Source of the DNA: Dictyostelium discoideum
Taxonomy: Eukaryota
NCBI GenBank assembly: GCA_000004695.1
Contig: CM000150.2
Coordinates: forward strand, 2,112,001 to 2,176,000
Direction of reading: 5' to 3'
DNA length: 64,000 nucleotides
This document shows, piece after piece, positions 1,025 to 55,054 of the stretch; the first letter of the stretch is position 1, and each line of letters opens with the position of its first letter. Below the pieces are notes generated by a model. The model did no database searches and was not told the origin of the DNA. It saw only the letters and a list, made by a program, of their open reading frames with translations. Both the position numbers and the translations under genes were made by a program.

Positions 1025-4020
1025 TTATTTTCTTCCACCTTTACCTTTACCTTTTTTACCTTTACCTTTGTTGTTATTATTATTGTTGTTTGGTTTTTTT
1101 GGTTGGTTAGCGTTGGTGGTAGTTTGTTCAGTGGTAGTATTAGAGGCTTCATCGACTTCTTCACCTTCTTCGGTTTCTTCTTTGTTTTCAGTTTCAGTTG
1201 GTTTAGCTTGTTCAGTGGTTGATTCTTCTACTTTGGTTTCTTCTTGGACTGGTTCTTCAACTTTGGTTTCTTCTTGAACTGGTTCTTCAACTTTAGTTTC
1301 TTCTTGGACTGGTTCTTCAACTTTAGTTTCTTCTTGAACTGGTTCTTCAACTTTAGTTTCTTCTTGGACTGGTTCTTCAACTTTGATTTCTTCTTGAACT
1401 GGTTCTTCAACTTTAGTTTCTTCTTGGACTGGTTCTTCAACTTTAGTTTCTTCGGCAGCTTTTTCAGCGGCGGCTTCAGCTTCTAATCTTTCTTTTTCGG
1501 CTTGTGCAGCGGCGGCAGCTTCAGCTTCTAATCTTTCTTTTTCGGCTTGGGCAGCAGCGGCTTCAGCTTCTAATCTTTCTTTTTCTAAACGTTCAGTTTC
1601 TTCTTTTTCTAATCTTTCTTTTTCGGCTTGGGCAGCGGCGGCAGCTTCAGCTTCTAATCTTTCTTTTTCAGCTTGAGCAGCGGCAGCTTCAGCTTCTAAT
1701 TTTTCTTTTTCAGCTTGAGCGGCAGCGGCGGCTTCAGCTTCTAATCTTTCTTTTTCAGCTTGAGCAGCGGCGGCTTCAGCTTCTAATTTTTCTTTTTCTA
1801 AACGTTCAGCTTCTTCTTTTTCTAATCTTTCTTTTTCGGCTTGAGCAGCAGCTTCAGCTTCAGCTTCTAATTTTTCTTTTTCAGCTTGAGCAGCAGCAGC
1901 AGCTTCAGCTTCTAATCTTTCTTTTTCGGCTTGTGCAGCAGCGGCGGCTTCAGCTTCTAATCTTTCTTTTTCAGCTTGAGCAGCGGCGGCTTCAGCTTCT
2001 AATTTTTCTTTTTCTAAACGTTCAGCTTCTTCTTTTTCAGCTTGAGCAGCAGCGGCGGCTTCAGCTTCTAATCTTTCTTTTTCGGCTTGAGCAGCAGCGG
2101 CGGCTTCAGCTTCTAATCTTTCTTTTTCAGCTTGAGCAGCGGCGGCAGCTTCGGCTTCTAATCTTTCTTTTTCGGCTTGGGCAGCAGCGGCAGCTTCAGC
2201 TTCTAATTTTTCTTTTTCAGCTTGAGCAGCGGCGGCAGCTTCGGCTTCTAATTTCTCTTTTTCTAAACGTTCAGTTTCTTCTTTTTCTAATCTTTCTTTT
2301 TCAGCTTGAGCGGCAGCGGCGGCTTCAGCTTCTAATCTTTCTTTTTCAGCTTGAGTAGCAGCGGCGGCTTCAGCTTCTAATTTTTCTTTTTCTAAACGAT
2401 CAGCTTCTTCTTTTTCTAATCTTTCTTTTTCAGCTTGAACGGCAGCGGCGGCTTCAGCTTCTAATCTTTCTTTTTCAGCTTGGGCGGCAGCGGCGGCTTC
2501 AGCTTCTAATCTTTCTTTTTCAGCTTGAGCAGCAGCGGCGGCTTCAGCTTCTAATCTTTCTTTTTCTAATTTATCTGCTTCTTCTTTTTCTAAACGTTCT
2601 TTTTCAGCTTGAGCGGCTGCTGCTGCTTCTTGTTGTTGTTTTTCTAAATTTTCTTGAGCTTCCTTTTCATCTTTAATTCTCTTTTCTTCAGCTTCTTTGG
2701 CAACTCTTTCAGCCTCTTCCTTTTCTAAACGCTCTTTTTCTAATTTTGCTGCTGCTTCTTCTTTTTCTAAACGTTCTTTTTCTTCTTTTTCTTTTGAATC
2801 ATCAACAACTGGTTCTGGTTTTGATTCTTCAACAACTGGTTTTGATTCTTCGACTACTGGTTTTGATTCTTCGACAACTGGTTTTGATTCTTCAACAACT
2901 GGTTTTGATTCTTCAACAACTGGTGAAGAAGTAGTTGTAGTAGTTGTAGTTGTTGTAGAAGTAGTAGTAGTGTTAATATTTGATGATGGTGATTCATTTT
3001 TAGCATTTTCAATTCTTTCTTTAATCCATTCTAAAATATAAGTAACAAATTCTTCTTTAGCAAATTCATTATGAACTTCATGATACATATTTTCCCAAAG
3101 TTTTAAAGTTTTATCGACAGTTGATGGAACACGATCATAGAATTGTTGTGAAGCTTTTGGACAAGTGATTTTATCATCATTAGCGTGAACCAATAATAAT
3201 GGAGTATCAAATTGTGGTGCTAAATCAATGAGTTGTTCAGAACGTTGTAACATCCATTTAGCCATACCCAATGAGATTTTATTGTGAACCAATTTATCTT
3301 GTTTATATTCGTTTACGACTGCAGAATCTTTAGAGATTAAAGTTGGATCGATTGAATTGCTGATGGTCCATGATGGCATGAGACCACCCAATAAATTACC
3401 CATACTAAGTTTGACACCTGATACTTTGATTGCTGGTTTAATCAATGGTGATGTAACGATACAACCTGCTGGATGGTGATCTTTCTTCTTTAAATTGTAA
3501 TGAAGTGCTAAACAACCACCAAAACTATGACCATAGATAAAATGTGGTACATCGGTTTCAGCTGTTGATGCAATTAATTGAATATCTTTTAATGATTGTT
3601 CGAGTGATGGTGAATGACCTCTAACACCACTTGAAATACCATGACCTCTTTGATCGAATGCATTTACTTTAATACCTTGTTCTGCAAATCTACTAAAAAC
3701 ATGTTCATAACGACCACTATGTTCACCTAAACCATGAATCTAAATAATAAAAAGTTTTTTATTAAAATTAAGTTACACATAAATTTTTTTTTTTTTTTTT
3801 TTTTTTTTTCCCTCTTAATTTTTTTTTTTTTTTTTTTTCCCACGAATCTCAAAAATAAAAAAAAAAAAAAAAAATAATGAAAAAGAAGGGGTGAAGGGGT
3901 TTATTATTGGTTTTAAAAAACTTACCATGGTAACTGTGGCAATTGGTTTAACTTTTGGCTATGAAATATAAAAATAAATTATTAAGAAAATTAATATCCA
4001 TGCATTATTATTTGAATTTG

Positions 4021-50448: not shown

Positions 50449-52597
50449 TTAAAAATAAAATTGAACAAATTTACTAAAAAAGTTTGAATTTAAAATTTTT
50501 GAAAGATTTGATTGTTTTTTAATATAAAAGGTTTCAAATGAAATTGTAAAATAATCATTAAATGATAATGAAAGATCTTGATCAAATTGCATTGAATTAA
50601 TTGTTAAAATTTTTAAAGAGGATGGTAATGAACCAATTGGAAAATGTAAATTATAATTTATATTACTAAATGATAGTGATGTTATATTATTTGGAAGTAT
50701 ATTAATTTCAATTTTTTGATTAAACATACTACCAAAGTATAAAGATGTTAATGTTTTTGGTAAAATATCAATTTCAATAAATTGATTAAATTTACTACCA
50801 AATGATAAATTAATTAAATCATATGGTAATACACCTTTTTCAATTGGTTGATTAAAGTCGCAACCAAATGATAAACTTTTTAAACTATATGGTAATACAT
50901 CATTTTCAATTGGTTGATTAAATTTTGACCCAAATTTTAAATTAATTAAATTATATGGTAGTACATCTTTTTCAACTGGTTGATTAAATGAATAACCAAA
51001 TGATAAACTTGTTAAATTGCATGGTAAAACATCTTTTTCAATTGATTGATTAAATGAAGCTCCAAATGATAAACTTGTTAAATTTATAGGTAAAACATCT
51101 TTTTCAATTGGTTGATTAAAATAATAATCAAATGATAAATTTGTTAAAGTAATTGGTATAACATTTATTTTAATTGGTTTATTAAAATGATATCCAAATG
51201 ATAAATTTTTTAAATTTAATGGTAATTCATTTTCATTTAAAATTTGATTAAAATTTAAACCAAATGATAATGTTTTTAAATTTTTTGGTAATGAATCCAT
51301 TTCAACAATTTCATTAAATTTATTACCAAATGATATTTCTTTAATATTATGATTAAATAAATTACCTTTTTTAATTAAACAATTAAATTTATCATTAAAT
51401 GATAAAATTTTAATTTTAAAATAATTTGGTATTAAATTTTCAATATTATTATTATTATTATTAAAATTTAATGAAATTTTAATTTTATTATTATTTGGAA
51501 ATATATGATTATTATTATTATTATTTTTTAAACCAAATTTTAAAATTTCTAATTTATTTAATGAATTTAAATTTTTAAAATTACCAGATTCACATAAATC
51601 TAAAAATGTTAATGTTTTTGGTAAAGTTTTATTATCAATATATTGTTGAAAATTTTCACCAAATTTTAAAGATTTTAATGGTAAATTTAAAAAGTAACCA
51701 CTTGGTATTGGTTGATTAAAATTTTCTTTAAATGTTAAAGATGTTAAATTTGGTGGAAATTTACAATCATTATCATTAAATGATATATTAAAATTTTTAC
51801 CAAATATAATTGTTTTTAAATTTATTAATTCATTAAAATTAAATGATTGATTAAAATTTTCACCAAATTCAATAAACTCCAATTTAATTGGTAATGAATT
51901 TATTTCAATTAAACTATTAAAACAAAAATCAAATGTAATTGATAAAACATTATTTGGAATTACATTTGGTTTAATAATTTGATTAAATAATCTATCAAAT
52001 TTTAAAGTTGTTATTGATTTTGGTATGATTAAATTTGATTTTAATTTTAATTTATTTAATTCTGATCTATATAAAAATTCAAATCTTCTTTCAATTGAAA
52101 ATGACGATGATGATGAAATTGAAAAATTAAAATCAAAATTTTCATTCAATTTTTCAATTAATTTATTTGGTAATATTAATGATTTTAATTTATTTGGTAA
52201 GTTAATATCTTGATTGATTGATTGATTAAATTCTTTACCAAATTTTAAATATTCAATATTTAATGGTAACCAATTACCAATAAGTGATTGATTAAATGAA
52301 TTTCCAAATTCAATATATTTAATAGTTGATGGTAAAACTCCAATTTCAATTGGTTGATTAAATTCTTCAAAAAATTTAATTGCTTTAATATTATTTGGTA
52401 TCATACCTTTTACTAAGGTTTCATTATTTTCAATTGATAATTTAATAATATTTAAATAACTTTTATATTTATAATTTATAAAATCTTTTAATTTGAATGA
52501 AAATAATTTATTATAATGTTTATTATATAATCTTAAATGAAGTATTATTTCATTTCTAATTATAATATTTCTCCAAATTTTAAAAAATAAATTACAG

Positions 52598-52628
<31 letters not shown>

Positions 52629-52638
52629 GTTTTCCCAT
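50449..52638 (-). CDS. FNIP-repeat protein, 729 aa, single exon. It is a paralogue of 4939..6255.
   Basis: More than 20 FNIP units (..LPxxLxxLxFGxxFNQ(P/S)I..). The N-terminus MGKLNNKNNNNNNNCNLFFKIWRNIIIRNEI parallels the other FNIP gene. Confidence 0.7.
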
Positions 52639-52811
52639 TTAATAAATTAATTTTTTTAATTTTTATAAAAATCAAATGAAAAAAAAAAAAAAAAAAAAAA
52701 AATCATATTGTTCATTAATTTTCATTTTTTTTTCTTAAAAATTACTTAATTTAAAAAAAAAAAATGACAACCAATGGTTGTCGAAATTTTATTTTTTATA
52801 AATCCCACCAT

Positions 52812-52824
52812 CTAGAATCGAACC
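52812..52824 (-). promoter_or_regulatory. External B box (ggttcgattctag) about 30 bp downstream of tRNA-iMet copy 1.
   Basis: A GGTTCGAnTCC B-box-like motif lies just 3' of the tRNA. Dictyostelium tRNA genes commonly carry an extra downstream B box. Confidence 0.5.
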
Positions 52825-52853
52825 TGCGGCATATTTCTCCATGTCGAAAAATT

Positions 52854-52925
52854 TAGCTTCTCTAGGTTTCGATCCTAGGACCTCGAGGTTATGGGCCTCG
52901 CACTCTACCCCTGAGTTAAGAAGCT
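52854..52925 (-). tRNA. Initiator tRNA-Met (anticodon CAT), 72 nt.
   Basis: AGCTTCT-TA-ACTC-AGGGGTA-GAGT-G-CGAGG-CCCATAA-CCTCG-AGGTC-CTAGG-ATCGAAA-CCTAG-AGAAGCT-A. All four stems pair perfectly. The anticodon loop is C-C-CAT-A-A. The T-loop is GATCGAAAC with A54 and A60, and there are three G-C pairs in the anticodon stem, which are hallmarks of eukaryotic cytoplasmic initiator tRNA. Confidence 0.85.
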
Positions 52926-52985
52926 GTAGATACAAGCTTGTTGAACCATGAGTTTCCACCATTTAAATATACACTGAGTACCAGA

Positions 52986-53126
52986 AAATTAAAAAAATTC
53001 AAAAACATCATCTCCCTACAACTCGAAAGATTTAGCAAACACTGGAACTCACCACTACACACAGTAGCACTACCATTAAACCTCAACAAATATATTACGT
53101 CACCAAACACACTCTACACCCCCCAA

Positions 53127-53184
<58 letters not shown>

Positions 53185-53671
53185 ATACAACCTTAAAAGG
53201 CAGTAAACGTGTGGCGCACTGGCGAGAAACTTCAAGTAACGGGAAGGAGGCTAGTGACTATGGGCCGTCGCGCTCACACAAATTAAGTCGACAAAAGGAA
53301 AAATATATATAAAGACCTATGGTGAGTTAGTGGCGCGAGAGATCACGAAAGTGGCTTAAGGTTTTACCGATAGTATTAGTGGAGGTTGGGTAGTTATAGC
53401 ACCATCAACTTCAAGACCCTCCATACTGTCGCTTAGGAAAAGAACTACCAGTACACGAACTAAAGAAAACTCAAGCAGCAGCCTGGGAAAAAAAACAACA
53501 TATACAAACTAATCAGACAAGAAAAAAAAGCAACCAAAAACGAATAAATAAAAAAATTCAAAAATCACCCTACAACTTGCTAGATTAAGCAAACACTAGA
53601 ACTCACCATTACAACAGTAACATCAAACCTCAATAAATATTACATCACTCAACACACTCTACACCCCCCAA

Positions 53672-53706
<35 letters not shown>

Positions 53707-53725
53707 ATACAACCTTAAAAGGCAC
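52986..53725. mobile_element. TRE5 (DRE)-like tRNA-targeted non-LTR retroelement fragment(s). There are two tandem about 170-bp modules (52990..53203 and 53551..53725), each ending in ccccccaactt(A)n + aaccatacaaccttaaaaggca, flanking a GC-richer about 340-bp segment.
   Basis: It starts about 60 bp upstream of the tRNA, the classic TRE5 insertion distance. The duplicated module resembles the A-module organisation of TRE5-A. Internal poly(A) tracts sit at module ends. The subfamily was not determined. Confidence 0.45.
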
Positions 53726-54400
53726 CTATAAAATATTTAATAATAAAATGAGATATCTCAAGAAGAAGCAACTAAAATTGCGTTATCCATTCAAAAAAAG
53801 AAAATTAGGGAAGTTAAGATATTTTGATAGGATATAAAAATGTTTAATTATTAAACATCAAACAATTTACAAATTTCTTAATCAAATTCTTAATATCAAA
53901 AGTCAAAAACTCTGAATTTCAAAAAAATCAATAATAATCAAATTAAAAATTACAAATTTACAAACTCCAATTCACAATTTCTAAGATTACACATATCTGA
54001 TCTTAAGTAATCATTGTTGCAGAATGGTCTGCAAAACTTTGGAACTTTTATCTTTGATCAATATCATTCAGAGGGTGGCTTCTTATGTTGGCATCATATA
54101 GAATTGTTCTGGATAGTTCTTCAATGACCGTTACAAAGAGAGTAGGTGATATGGTTTCCCTGTTTTACTCCTCTTTTTATAGTAAAGGGGAGGGGCTTTC
54201 CATTGATTTCTATCCTGGGTGTGAGTTTCATAATTAGGTTTGTTAGGTTGGTGGGAACTTTGATACGTTGAACCGTTCTAAGTATTGATTTAGAAAGAGT
54301 TATTTATCTCAGGTTTTTTTAAATTAAATTATCTTAAATTCCATTATATTCTGGTACTTTTTTTTTTTGAATTGGAGGAATTATATTCTGGTACTGATTG
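53726..54400. mobile_element. Unclassified repeat/retroelement remnant between the TRE5-like modules and tRNA-iMet copy 2. It may be an LTR or element terminus facing the second tRNA.
   Basis: GC-richer, non-coding-looking sequence with a TATA-like tataaaaag. It abuts the conserved about 60-bp upstream flank of tRNA copy 2. A 15-bp direct repeat gtaccagaatataat (x2) at about 54340..54392 brackets a 21-bp insert. Confidence 0.3.
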
Positions 54401-54446
54401 TATATCCAAATGGTGGAAACTCATGGTTCAACAAGCTTGTATCGAC

Positions 54447-54518
54447 AGCTTCTTAACTCAGGGGTAGAGTGCGAGGCCCATAACCTCGAGGTCCTAGGAT
54501 CGAAACCTAGAGAAGCTA
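54447..54518 (+). tRNA. Initiator tRNA-Met (anticodon CAT), 72 nt, identical to copy 1 but in opposite orientation.
   Basis: Same sequence as 52854..52925 reverse-complemented. About 60 bp of upstream flank is also shared, with one mismatch. Confidence 0.85.
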
Positions 54519-54548
54519 AATTTTTCCACCATAATTAAAGAGGTCAAA

Positions 54549-54559
54549 GGTTCGACTCC
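54549..54559 (+). promoter_or_regulatory. External B box (ggttcgactcc) about 30 bp downstream of tRNA-iMet copy 2.
   Basis: A B-box consensus lies 3' of the tRNA. The downstream flanks of the two tRNA copies otherwise differ. Confidence 0.5.
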
Positions 54560-55054
54560 CTATTTTTAATACTCTCATTTTCCGTTCAATTATTTGTTTC
54601 TATTTGCTTATGAGGGGCCACTCAGCACCTCCAAAAAAAAAAAATAAAAACAAAATAATTAAAAAAAAAAAAATTAAATTAAAACAAATAAAAAATTAAT
54701 TTCCTTACACCCAACTATAATTTTATTACACCAGAATAAAAACAATCTTCCAAAAATACTTTGATATTAAAAAAAAAAAAAAAAAAAATCAAAAAAATAT
54801 TTTCTTATTATACATTATTATGTAGTCTTAATTTGGATTTTTATTGAATTTTTTATCTGTCTATGGTTTTTTTTTTTAATTTTTTATCATTACTAAATTA
54901 GTAAATCTTTTAAAATAAATTAATTTTTTTTTTTTTTTATTTTTTTTTTTTTTTGTTTTTTTTTTATTTATTTTTGAATAATTTTTGCAATCAGCCACTT
55001 CTTTTTTTTTTTTTTTTTTTTTTTGCGATCATATATAAAAGAAAAAAACAAAAA

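Follow-up and report, generated by a model that had tools for sequence, protein, structure and literature searches.

Our findings highlight a pair of identical initiator-type tRNA-Met(CAT) genes in a 64-kb stretch of the Dictyostelium discoideum genome (hereafter the window, to whose first letter all coordinates refer unless a locus is named), together with the retroelement remains that lie between them. The reading that we favor, at a probability of roughly 0.85, is that an active initiator tRNA-Met pair was formed by inverted duplication and that each copy was then struck independently on its upstream side by a retroelement of the TRE5 family. Copy 1 lies at 52854-52925 on the minus strand and copy 2 at 54447-54518 on the plus strand. 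These are the only two tRNA genes that ARAGORN finds in the window, both of them tRNA-Met(CAT); Rfam model RF00005 matches both over their full length at 57.7 bits each, and they are identical across all 72 nt. In agreement with an earlier note drawn up from the letters alone, which had described two identical head-to-head tRNA-Met genes with anticodon CAT, the 5' ends of the copies point at each other. Each gene is followed by a T5 run that reads as an RNA polymerase III (Pol III) terminator (52847-52851 on the minus strand for copy 1, 54521-54525 on the plus strand for copy 2), the run of copy 1 sitting inside AAATTTTTC, which is common to the 3' side of both genes.

The coordinates of both copies differ by exactly 2,112,000 from those given for MetCAU-4 (chr1 2164854-2164925) and MetCAU-3 (chr1 2166447-2166518) in S2 Table of PMC5391098. 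From this constant offset we infer that copies 1 and 2 are the dictyBase genes MetCAU-4 and MetCAU-3 of AX4 chr1, the window then being chr1 2,112,001-2,176,000, and on this coordinate match both would already be annotated; the locus as a whole is an ordinary and well-described situation in the D. discoideum genome. Over 22 kb, the window is 99.5% identical to locus L001 of another D. discoideum assembly (GCA_054883475.1), whose 2-kb tRNA region has the same structure, the lengths of two A-runs being the sole difference. De novo integrations of TRE5-A(bsr) are recorded in the same published table at both MetCAU-4 and MetCAU-3, with 1990 and 98 pseudoreads. Integration of TRE5-A requires a functional B box, and bound Pol III factors are thought to be needed as well (PMC3159450, PMC5006619). 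Taken together, these published integrations and the B-box and Pol III requirement indicate that both genes are most likely active Pol III units. When set beside the paired identical tRNA genes described for D. discoideum (PMC8163159), which it resembles in having two identical genes of the same anticodon, here 1.6 kb apart, the MetCAU-4/-3 pair shows nothing unusual. As a separate observation, in an excerpt of S2 Table of PMC5391098 the 72-nt MetCAU genes tend to pair (MetCAU-4/-3 on chr1, 1.6 kb apart; MetCAU-11/-5 and MetCAU-10/-6 on chr2, 3.4 kb apart each), and MetCAU-12 on chr3 has no partner within that excerpt.

The initiator character of the two copies is predicted from their sequence. 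The tRNA folds into a cloverleaf with anticodon CAU (minimum free energy -22.5 kcal/mol) and has an A1:U72 terminal pair (5' AGCUUCU, 3' AGAAGCU followed by A73), a CCCAUAA anticodon loop with C33, a variable loop of 5 nt, and A54 and A60 in the T-loop (AUCGAAA in place of TΨCRANY), the T-arm reading GGAUCGAAACC / GGATCGAAACC. The cloverleaf and the A54/A60 hallmarks that had been claimed for these genes are thus seen in the T-arm sequence, the full-length Rfam match and the minimum free energy fold. The three G-C pairs claimed for the anticodon stem (CGAGG/CCUCG) come down to two, G30:C40 and G31:C39, with A:U at 29:41. The window tRNA is collinear and gap-free with the human and yeast initiator tRNAs. 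It shares with these eukaryotic cytoplasmic initiators the 72-nt length, A1:U72, CCCAUAA with C33, A54, A60, G30:C40 and G31:C39, and differs from them at 29:41, where they have G:C. The elongator tRNA-Met of D. citrinum (locus L006) has a T-arm of GTTCGATCC in contrast to the GGAUCGAAACC of the window gene, and the site of the published 'MetCAU' elongator primer is present in that elongator and absent from the window gene. In the published profiling, this primer gave almost no reads for the 72-nt MetCAU genes and thousands for those of 73 nt (PMC5391098), the 73-nt MetCAU-7/-8/-9 being the ones that it amplified (S2 Table therein). At least seven MetCAU genes of 72 nt, several of them paired, stand in that table, and eight initiator tRNA-Met (iMet) genes have been reported for D. 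discoideum (PMC13063481). On these features, copies 1 and 2 are best assigned to the initiator type, despite the A:U pair at 29:41.

Both genes also carry an external B box (ex-B box) downstream. When the window was scanned on either strand for GGTTCGANNCC, one mismatch being allowed, four matches came up, two internal and two downstream of the genes, against about one in shuffled sequence, and the two downstream boxes are the only matches outside tRNA genes in the 64 kb. The box of copy 1, GGTTCGATTCT, occupies 52814-52824 on the minus strand, 29 nt past the 3' end of the tRNA, and that of copy 2, GGTTCGACTCC, occupies 54549-54559 on the plus strand, 30 nt past it. In D. discoideum, 66% of the tRNA genes have an external B box with the core GTTCRAnYC about 41 bp downstream (PMC3159450). 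The boxes found here fit that core on the sense strand, as GTTCGATTC and GTTCGACTC, starting 31-32 nt after the genes; they share motif and strand with the published ones and are equally spaced in the two copies. A GGTTCGAnTCC motif had been claimed about 30 bp downstream of each tRNA; the motif is there at both genes, but the copy-1 box ends in T and does not fit the pattern exactly. From terminator to box, the spacer sequences of the two copies cannot be aligned with each other, in contrast to upstream flanks that are 80-97% identical. About 30 nt beyond the copy-1 ex-B box, between T/A runs, there is a perfect palindrome with an 8-bp stem, TGACAACCAATGGTTGTCG (52765-52783).

The inverted duplication is evident as an inverted repeat with 147-nt arms (52843-52989 and 54383-54529) that are 95% complementary and span the tRNA together with about 60 nt on its upstream side and about 10 nt, T5 terminator included, on its downstream side. 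The earlier note had taken the stop of identity at about 60 bp upstream as the edge of the duplicated unit, which would then be the tRNA plus the typical TRE5 target distance. This does not hold once the insertions are removed. For an empty-site reconstruction, each insertion was deleted together with one copy of its target-site duplication, and the flanks were then compared. On the side of copy 1 (minus strand), this joins the 65-nt proximal 5' flank (52926-52990) to a distal ancestral flank displaced by the insertion (53807-53833); on the side of copy 2 (plus strand), it joins the proximal flank (54396-54446), through one copy of the 16-bp duplication, to its distal ancestral counterpart (54317-54342). 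The reconstructed flanks align gap-free and in register to about -87, with 36/37 positions identical at -1..-37, 19/23 at -38..-60 and 21/27 at -61..-87, falling to a random 36% at -93..-120. In the part that lies wholly beyond the insertions, 18 of 26 positions are identical (empirical P = 0.007 against AT-rich 26-mers of the window; binomial 2.6e-4), a significance that holds only for the anchored, in-register comparison: a free local alignment of the distal flanks alone was not significant (score 25 versus 22.4 +/- 3.3 in shuffles). Flank homology is therefore interrupted, not ended, at the TRE5 target distance; it appears to stop at about 60 bp because independent insertions interrupt the flanks, and the insertions do not define the duplicated unit. 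The in-register alignment also backs both proposed insertion boundaries. On the downstream side, the flanks cannot be aligned after +10, though the ex-B box is kept at equal spacing on both sides.

The identity gradient along these flanks is steep, at 97% over -1..-37 (52926-52962 / 54410-54446), then 83% and 78% farther upstream, the downstream spacers (52825-52845 / 54527-54548) being unalignable. Such a gradient suggests gene conversion or a conserved upstream element. The profile would also suit an older duplication, its core at -37..+82 having perhaps been kept near-identical by gene conversion or by selection.

The insertion on the side of copy 1 is a block of 809 bp (52991-53799) that starts 65 nt upstream of the tRNA and reads on the plus strand throughout. 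It begins after the first copy of the target-site duplication GAAAATT (52984-52990), which forms the last 7 nt of the proximal flank. Then come a TRE5-C-like 3' end of the second open reading frame (ORF2), comprising its last ~46 codons and the stop (52991-53130, module 1), an internal run of 50 A (A50, 53131-53180), and the first 22 nt of a C-module, AACCATACAACCTTAAAAGGCA (53181-53202). A GC-rich segment of 228 bp (53203-53430, 45.6% GC), which we call segment G, is followed by a second and more diverged TRE5-C-like ORF2 3' end (53431-53674, last ~80 codons, including module 2), a run of 28 A (A28, 53675-53702), a full C-module, the 3'-terminal module of TRE5-C and TRE5-A (53703-53792, ending ...GCGTTATCCATTC), and a terminal A7 tail (53793-53799). 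The second copy of GAAAATT occupies 53800-53806, and removal of 52991-53806 restores the in-register flanks. In the L001 assembly, A50 is 10 nt and A28 2 nt shorter than in the window. The order within the block is thus ORF2 3' end, A50, 22 nt of C-module, G, diverged ORF2 3' end, A28, full C-module and A7.

The two modules of about 170 bp that had been described here do exist, and 52987-53159 and 53546-53704 are 83% identical before a further 50 nt at 100%; they are coding ORF2 ends, however, and not generic untranslated modules. When the core region was translated in its three forward frames and compared with known proteins, it matched DDB_G0293280 (P0001), a fragment of 229 aa with a CCHC-type zinc knuckle, which is typical of the C-terminal part of non-LTR (long terminal repeat) ORF2 proteins. 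The translation of module 1 has 86% amino-acid identity to the last 29 residues of this protein, and its residues 162-225 match 53433-53614 in tblastn, with one frameshift and in-frame stops. Module 1 also has 51% amino-acid identity, with the same end point, to a 462-aa TRE5-A-type ORF2 C-terminal fragment in locus L002, and the ORF2 end of the block is 71% identical in nucleotides to that TRE5-A-type copy. Of the TRE5 ORF2, with its APE, RT (reverse transcriptase) and zinc-finger domains, the block holds the extreme C-terminus only. Since the modules translate to the ORF2 C-terminus, they correspond to the last 46-85 codons of ORF2, whose stop overlaps the start of the A-run, and comprise the C-terminal end of TRE5 ORF2 and, after it, a fossil poly(A) that leads into the first part of the C-module. 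With ORF2 C-terminal homology, tails and target-site duplications in place, the proposal that the DNA between the tRNAs is TRE5-family debris is well borne out. An early idea of ours, in which module 1, the core and module 2 were the A-, B- and C-modules of a recombined TRE5-A, was dropped in view of the ORF2 coding ends; it also fails in that the true A- and B-module-like sequences of L002 are unmatched in the window.

The subfamily of the block was approached through surrogate references, namely unannotated genomic copies in loci L002-L006, fetched around relatives of DDB_G0293280. The closest relative is a 5'-truncated element of 868 bp in L002 (9881-10748), whose 5' end faces a tRNA-Ser(GCU) gene at a distance of 43 nt on the upstream side and which has its own target-site duplication, ATGTTnTCGCAGAA; a like element lies about 50 nt upstream of a tRNA-Asn gene in L005. 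In all, the related elements are 76-96% identical in DNA, lie 43-50 nt upstream of tRNA-Ser or tRNA-Asn genes, and have target-site duplications of their own and the same orientation. The module 1 region (52983-53163) is about 96% identical in nucleotides to L002 10460-10641, within the element upstream of the tRNA-Ser gene, and 53458-53799 is 84.6% identical to L002 10372-10747. In every related copy there is an A-run at the equivalent position, and homology runs past this A-run and the 22-nt motif for about 70 nt more, ending ...GCGTTAT(T)CCATTC(A)n, so the A-run is internal and the piece after it is the C-module, which has been suggested to be acquired by 3' transduction (PMC4559204).

The published layouts place the block with TRE5-C. 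TRE5-A (DRE) is organized as AB-ORF1-ORF2-BC, with a 290-bp B-module before the C-module and an A- plus B-module at the 5' end, whereas TRE5-C has a 3' C-module without a 3' B-module and is known from partial copies only (PMC3159450). An extra 297-bp piece lies between the ORF2 stop and the C-module in L002 6400-7092 and L004 9740-10370, and these copies fit the published ORF2-B-C layout of TRE5-A (PMC3159450). This B-module-like piece (L002 6628-6924) holds an ATG and partly recurs at L002 7413-7590; both it and an A-module-like piece (L002 7093-7412) match only A-runs in 52800-54600. An ORF2-(A)n-C-module arrangement that lacks a B-module corresponds to TRE5-C and not to TRE5-A, and the 868 bp of the closest relative compare with a published TRE5-C partial consensus of 879 bp from 18 copies located 38-95 bp from tRNA genes (PMC5006619 Table 1). 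The C-module of the window is 84% identical to that of the L002c element and 73-75% identical to the TRE5-A-type C-module, the published identity between TRE5-A.1 and TRE5-C C-modules being 78%. We infer from the layout and from the unannotated genomic copies that the 809-bp block is probably of TRE5-C type. It has in common with TRE5-C the ORF2 3' end followed by a C-module with no 3' B-module, the 5' truncation, the 5' end toward the tRNA, a 65-nt distance that falls inside 38-95 bp, the poly(A) tail and the target-site duplication; by the published layout, it differs as a composite of two 3' ends around a 228-bp GC-rich piece. With TRE5-A, the window elements share the family, the targeting mechanism, the orientation and a homologous C-module, whereas the block lacks an A-module and a B-module and its ORF2 end has only the 51% amino-acid and 71% nucleotide identity given above. 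The earlier attribution to TRE5-A (DRE) fragments was thus right as to family, but the large block lacks the B-module and only the 11-nt insertion near copy 2, described below, resembles a TRE5-A end. As a side observation, L002 5031-14248 (GCA_054883475.1, CM142509.1) holds three tRNA-Ser(GCU) genes 4.7 and 4.4 kb apart with TRE5-A- and TRE5-C-type elements stacked upstream; AX4 SerGCU-9/-8/-7 are spaced 1.5 and 4.2 kb, and if this is the same locus as L002, strain-specific TRE5 insertions would amount to about 3 kb.

On the side of copy 2, a direct repeat of ATTATATTCTGGTACT brackets 21 nt. The repeat, given before as 15 bp, is real and 16 nt long, with a distal copy at 54343-54358 and a proximal copy at 54380-54395. 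Pairs of identical 16-mers of this kind arise about 0.35 times per 64 kb in Markov-simulated windows, and this is the sole real pair outside coding tandem repeats. The bracketed 21 nt (54359-54379, minus strand) read as an extremely 5'-truncated TRE5 insertion, consisting of 11 nt, TCCTCCAATTC, and A10. Its last 8 nt before the tail, TCCAATTC, are those with which the TRE5-A-type C-modules of L002 and L004 terminate (GCGTTATCCAATTC(A)n), and in this it resembles TRE5-A. The tail is directed away from tRNA copy 2, and the 5' end lies 67 nt upstream of it. The 16-bp repeat is accordingly best regarded, on its sequence context, as a target-site duplication around an 11-nt C-module end with its A10 tail. 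A small insertion with a target-site duplication had been proposed as something to check here, and both the C-module end plus A10 inside the repeat and the empty-site alignment agree with it.

Farther from copy 2 lies a decayed non-LTR reverse-transcriptase fragment (54010-54310, minus strand). It retains RT motifs as far as the FADD box and is broken by one frameshift and a single stop. Pfam RVT_1 matches it at E = 5.8e-6 and 26.6 bits, which is under the gathering score, and in the PDB it is best matched by residues 635-703 of LINE-1 ORF2p, at E of about 1e-3. No match was found in a protein search with the frameshift-corrected fragment or in tblastn against L002-L006. Its 5' side faces copy 2, as that of a TRE5 would, and its 5' edge is near the end of the flank homology; no 3' end is present. 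The fragment appears to be LINE-1-like and non-LTR, and we assign it to no TRE subfamily.

The insertions on both sides follow the published behavior of TRE5. The distance from the tRNA +1 to the nearest, 5', end of the element is 65 nt for copy 1 and 67 nt for copy 2; TRE5 is nominally found about 50 bp and is observed 34-95 bp upstream of tRNA genes (PMC5006619 Table 1). The element's 5' end points at the tRNA's 5' end in TRE5 (PMC3159450), as is seen for the copy-1 block on the plus strand and, on the minus strand, for the copy-2 mini-insertion as well as for the RT fragment. Poly(A) with a target-site duplication is present on each side, as A7 with two copies of GAAAATT and A10 with two copies of the 16-bp repeat. 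The favored course of events would begin when a unit of at least about 170 bp, which extended from about -87 to about +10 past the gene and probably included the ex-B box, was duplicated in inverted orientation. The internal A and B boxes, the T5 terminator and the ex-B box would permit TFIIIC/TFIIIB to assemble at both genes, and this complex is what TRE5 uses for choosing its sites upstream of tRNA genes. Each copy would then have been struck separately by target-primed reverse transcription with the element 5' end toward the tRNA, copy 1 receiving the TRE5-C-like 809-bp block with its GAAAATT duplication and copy 2 a dead-on-arrival copy of 21 bp with its 16-bp duplication. The L1-like RT fragment farther out would be an older arrival in the same orientation, and in the copy-1 block a second piece (G, the diverged ORF2 3' end and A28) probably entered the C-module of the first element. 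The setting is a common one: a TRE element is present at 61% of the tRNA genes of D. discoideum (PMC5006619), and paired identical tRNAs, ex-B boxes and TRE5 about 50 bp upstream are textbook features of this genome.

Several points weigh against this reading or parts of it. The anticodon stem of either tRNA-Met has only two of the three consecutive G:C pairs at 29-31/39-41. GAAAATT, at 7 bp, is a short duplication for AT-rich DNA, and the chief support for that insertion boundary is the empty-site alignment (the 18/26 match given above). The subfamily call depends on the layout and on unannotated copies and not on a curated TRE5-A/B/C consensus. A nested insertion in the copy-1 block would put that event about 280 bp from the tRNA, beyond the usual TRE5 window, and would need a copy without a C-module, which is reported to be essential in TRE5-A; the 22-nt repeat at its borders could be merely two conserved C-module starts. 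Segment G, finally, is explained by none of the sequences searched.

Two other accounts of the region as a whole were weighed. The duplicated unit might indeed be the tRNA plus about 60 bp only, its edge set by the TRE5 target distance, for example through retroelement co-mobilization of the tRNA with its flank. The raw inverted repeat does end at 52989/54383, where the retroelement sequence of copy 1 starts, but the reconstructed flanks go on in register for about 27 nt (the 21/27 above) before becoming random, and both genes retain the ex-B box past the shared +10. On geometric grounds, moreover, 5' transduction by TRE5 would yield tandem and not inverted tRNA copies, and we consider this account very unlikely. 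An LTR retrotransposon is harder still to reconcile with the data. In that case the modules would be the LTRs of DGLT-A, of another LTR element or of a miniature terminal-repeat retrotransposon and G would be its internal domain; two direct repeats of about 180-215 bp around a 340-bp core, a motif starting with TGG near the start of G and a purine-rich stretch before module 2 would all suit it. Against this, the repeats encode the C-terminus of a non-LTR ORF2 and, in other copies, run on upstream into ORF2. A search allowing three mismatches did not find the DGLT-A primer-binding site, TGGCGACATCGTCTTTC, and DGLT-A sits 13-33 bp from tRNA genes (PMC5006619), compared with 65-67 nt here. The distance, the lack of TGGCGACATCGTCTTTC and the ORF2 coding repeats all place the modules outside DGLT-A, in line with the prior judgment that a DGLT-A LTR was the worse fit, and we regard an LTR origin as scarcely credible.

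For the internal structure of the copy-1 block, we favor the nested insertion, in which the first element probably received G, the diverged ORF2 3' end and A28 within its C-module, a 22-bp target-site duplication being formed. The 5' and 3' copies of the 22-nt repeat (53181-53202 and 53703-53724, also equal to L002 10640-10661) are identical at 22/22 positions, beside modules at 83%. Stacking of two elements is possible, if the less probable course: an older element (G, ORF2 3' end and C-module) would have come first, a younger TRE5-C would have inserted between it and the tRNA, and a later deletion would have taken the younger C-module past nt 22, the tail and the duplication. The youngest-looking piece is the one nearest the tRNA (module 1 at 96% versus module 2 at 84.6% to L002), as repeated targeting predicts; the window C-module, at 84% to L002c, is near the value of module 2; and several TRE5 elements arrayed in tandem upstream of a single tRNA have been documented (PMC5391098) and are also present in L002 and L004. 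Yet stacking requires the extra deletion, the younger element must have entered exactly at the old junction without a visible duplication of its own, and perfect 22/22 C-module starts beside 83% modules stay unexplained, with a chance estimated at about 2%. A single event, in which the reverse transcriptase switched templates twice, from a TRE5-C RNA to an unrelated RNA (G) and on to another TRE5-C RNA, would account for the one target-site duplication that flanks the entire block and for the position of G, which has a TRE5-C 3' piece on either side, the two being collinear and equally oriented. It needs two switches and, as the TRE5-C pieces differ by 17%, different source RNAs, and G matches no known RNA family and is not unusually structured, so we think this unlikely.

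Segment G was sought widely. The GC-richer core that had been pointed out is present as this segment, but no TRE5 sequence compared explains it. It has no Rfam match at E<=10 and no Pfam match in six frames, no match in the C-terminal part of TRE5 ORF2 or in loci L002-L006, and none in plasmids (BLAST) or among exact 20-22-mers of JGI metagenomes and IMG/VR; its fold z-score is -1.2. In a tentative and rather improbable interpretation, G would be the 5' region of TRE5-C, an element that lacks a full-length consensus, in an internally deleted, non-autonomous copy, or a cellular or unknown RNA retro-copied by the TRE5 reverse transcriptase through template switching, inserted beside the A-run of a resident C-module with a 22-bp target-site duplication. 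Template-switch retrocopies are known in mammals as U6/L1 chimeras, which offer a counterpart for such a segment.

The significance of the locus beyond annotation is small. It is a clean example of TRE5 insertions masking the true extent of a duplicated flank, of an integration as short as 11 nt plus tail, and of TRE5-C/A 3' ends in which a fossil poly(A) still separates the ORF2 stop from the C-module, as the published 3'-transduction idea predicts. The loose ends are the GC-rich segment G and the steep identity gradient, for which gene conversion or a conserved upstream element may be responsible.

Two long reading frames elsewhere in the window deserve mention. An intron-less frame of 729 aa (50449-52638, minus strand) adjoins copy 1 and consists of FNIP-like repeats of about 22 residues (FGxxFNQPI, FNQ); an exact copy of its protein is on record only in assembly GCA_054883475.1. 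At 1025-3445 on the minus strand, a frame of 806 aa is composed of coding tandem repeats of 21, 30, 45 and 60 nt and lies in an island of 40% G+C, unusually GC-rich for the D. discoideum genome, the window as a whole having a G+C content of 21.7%.

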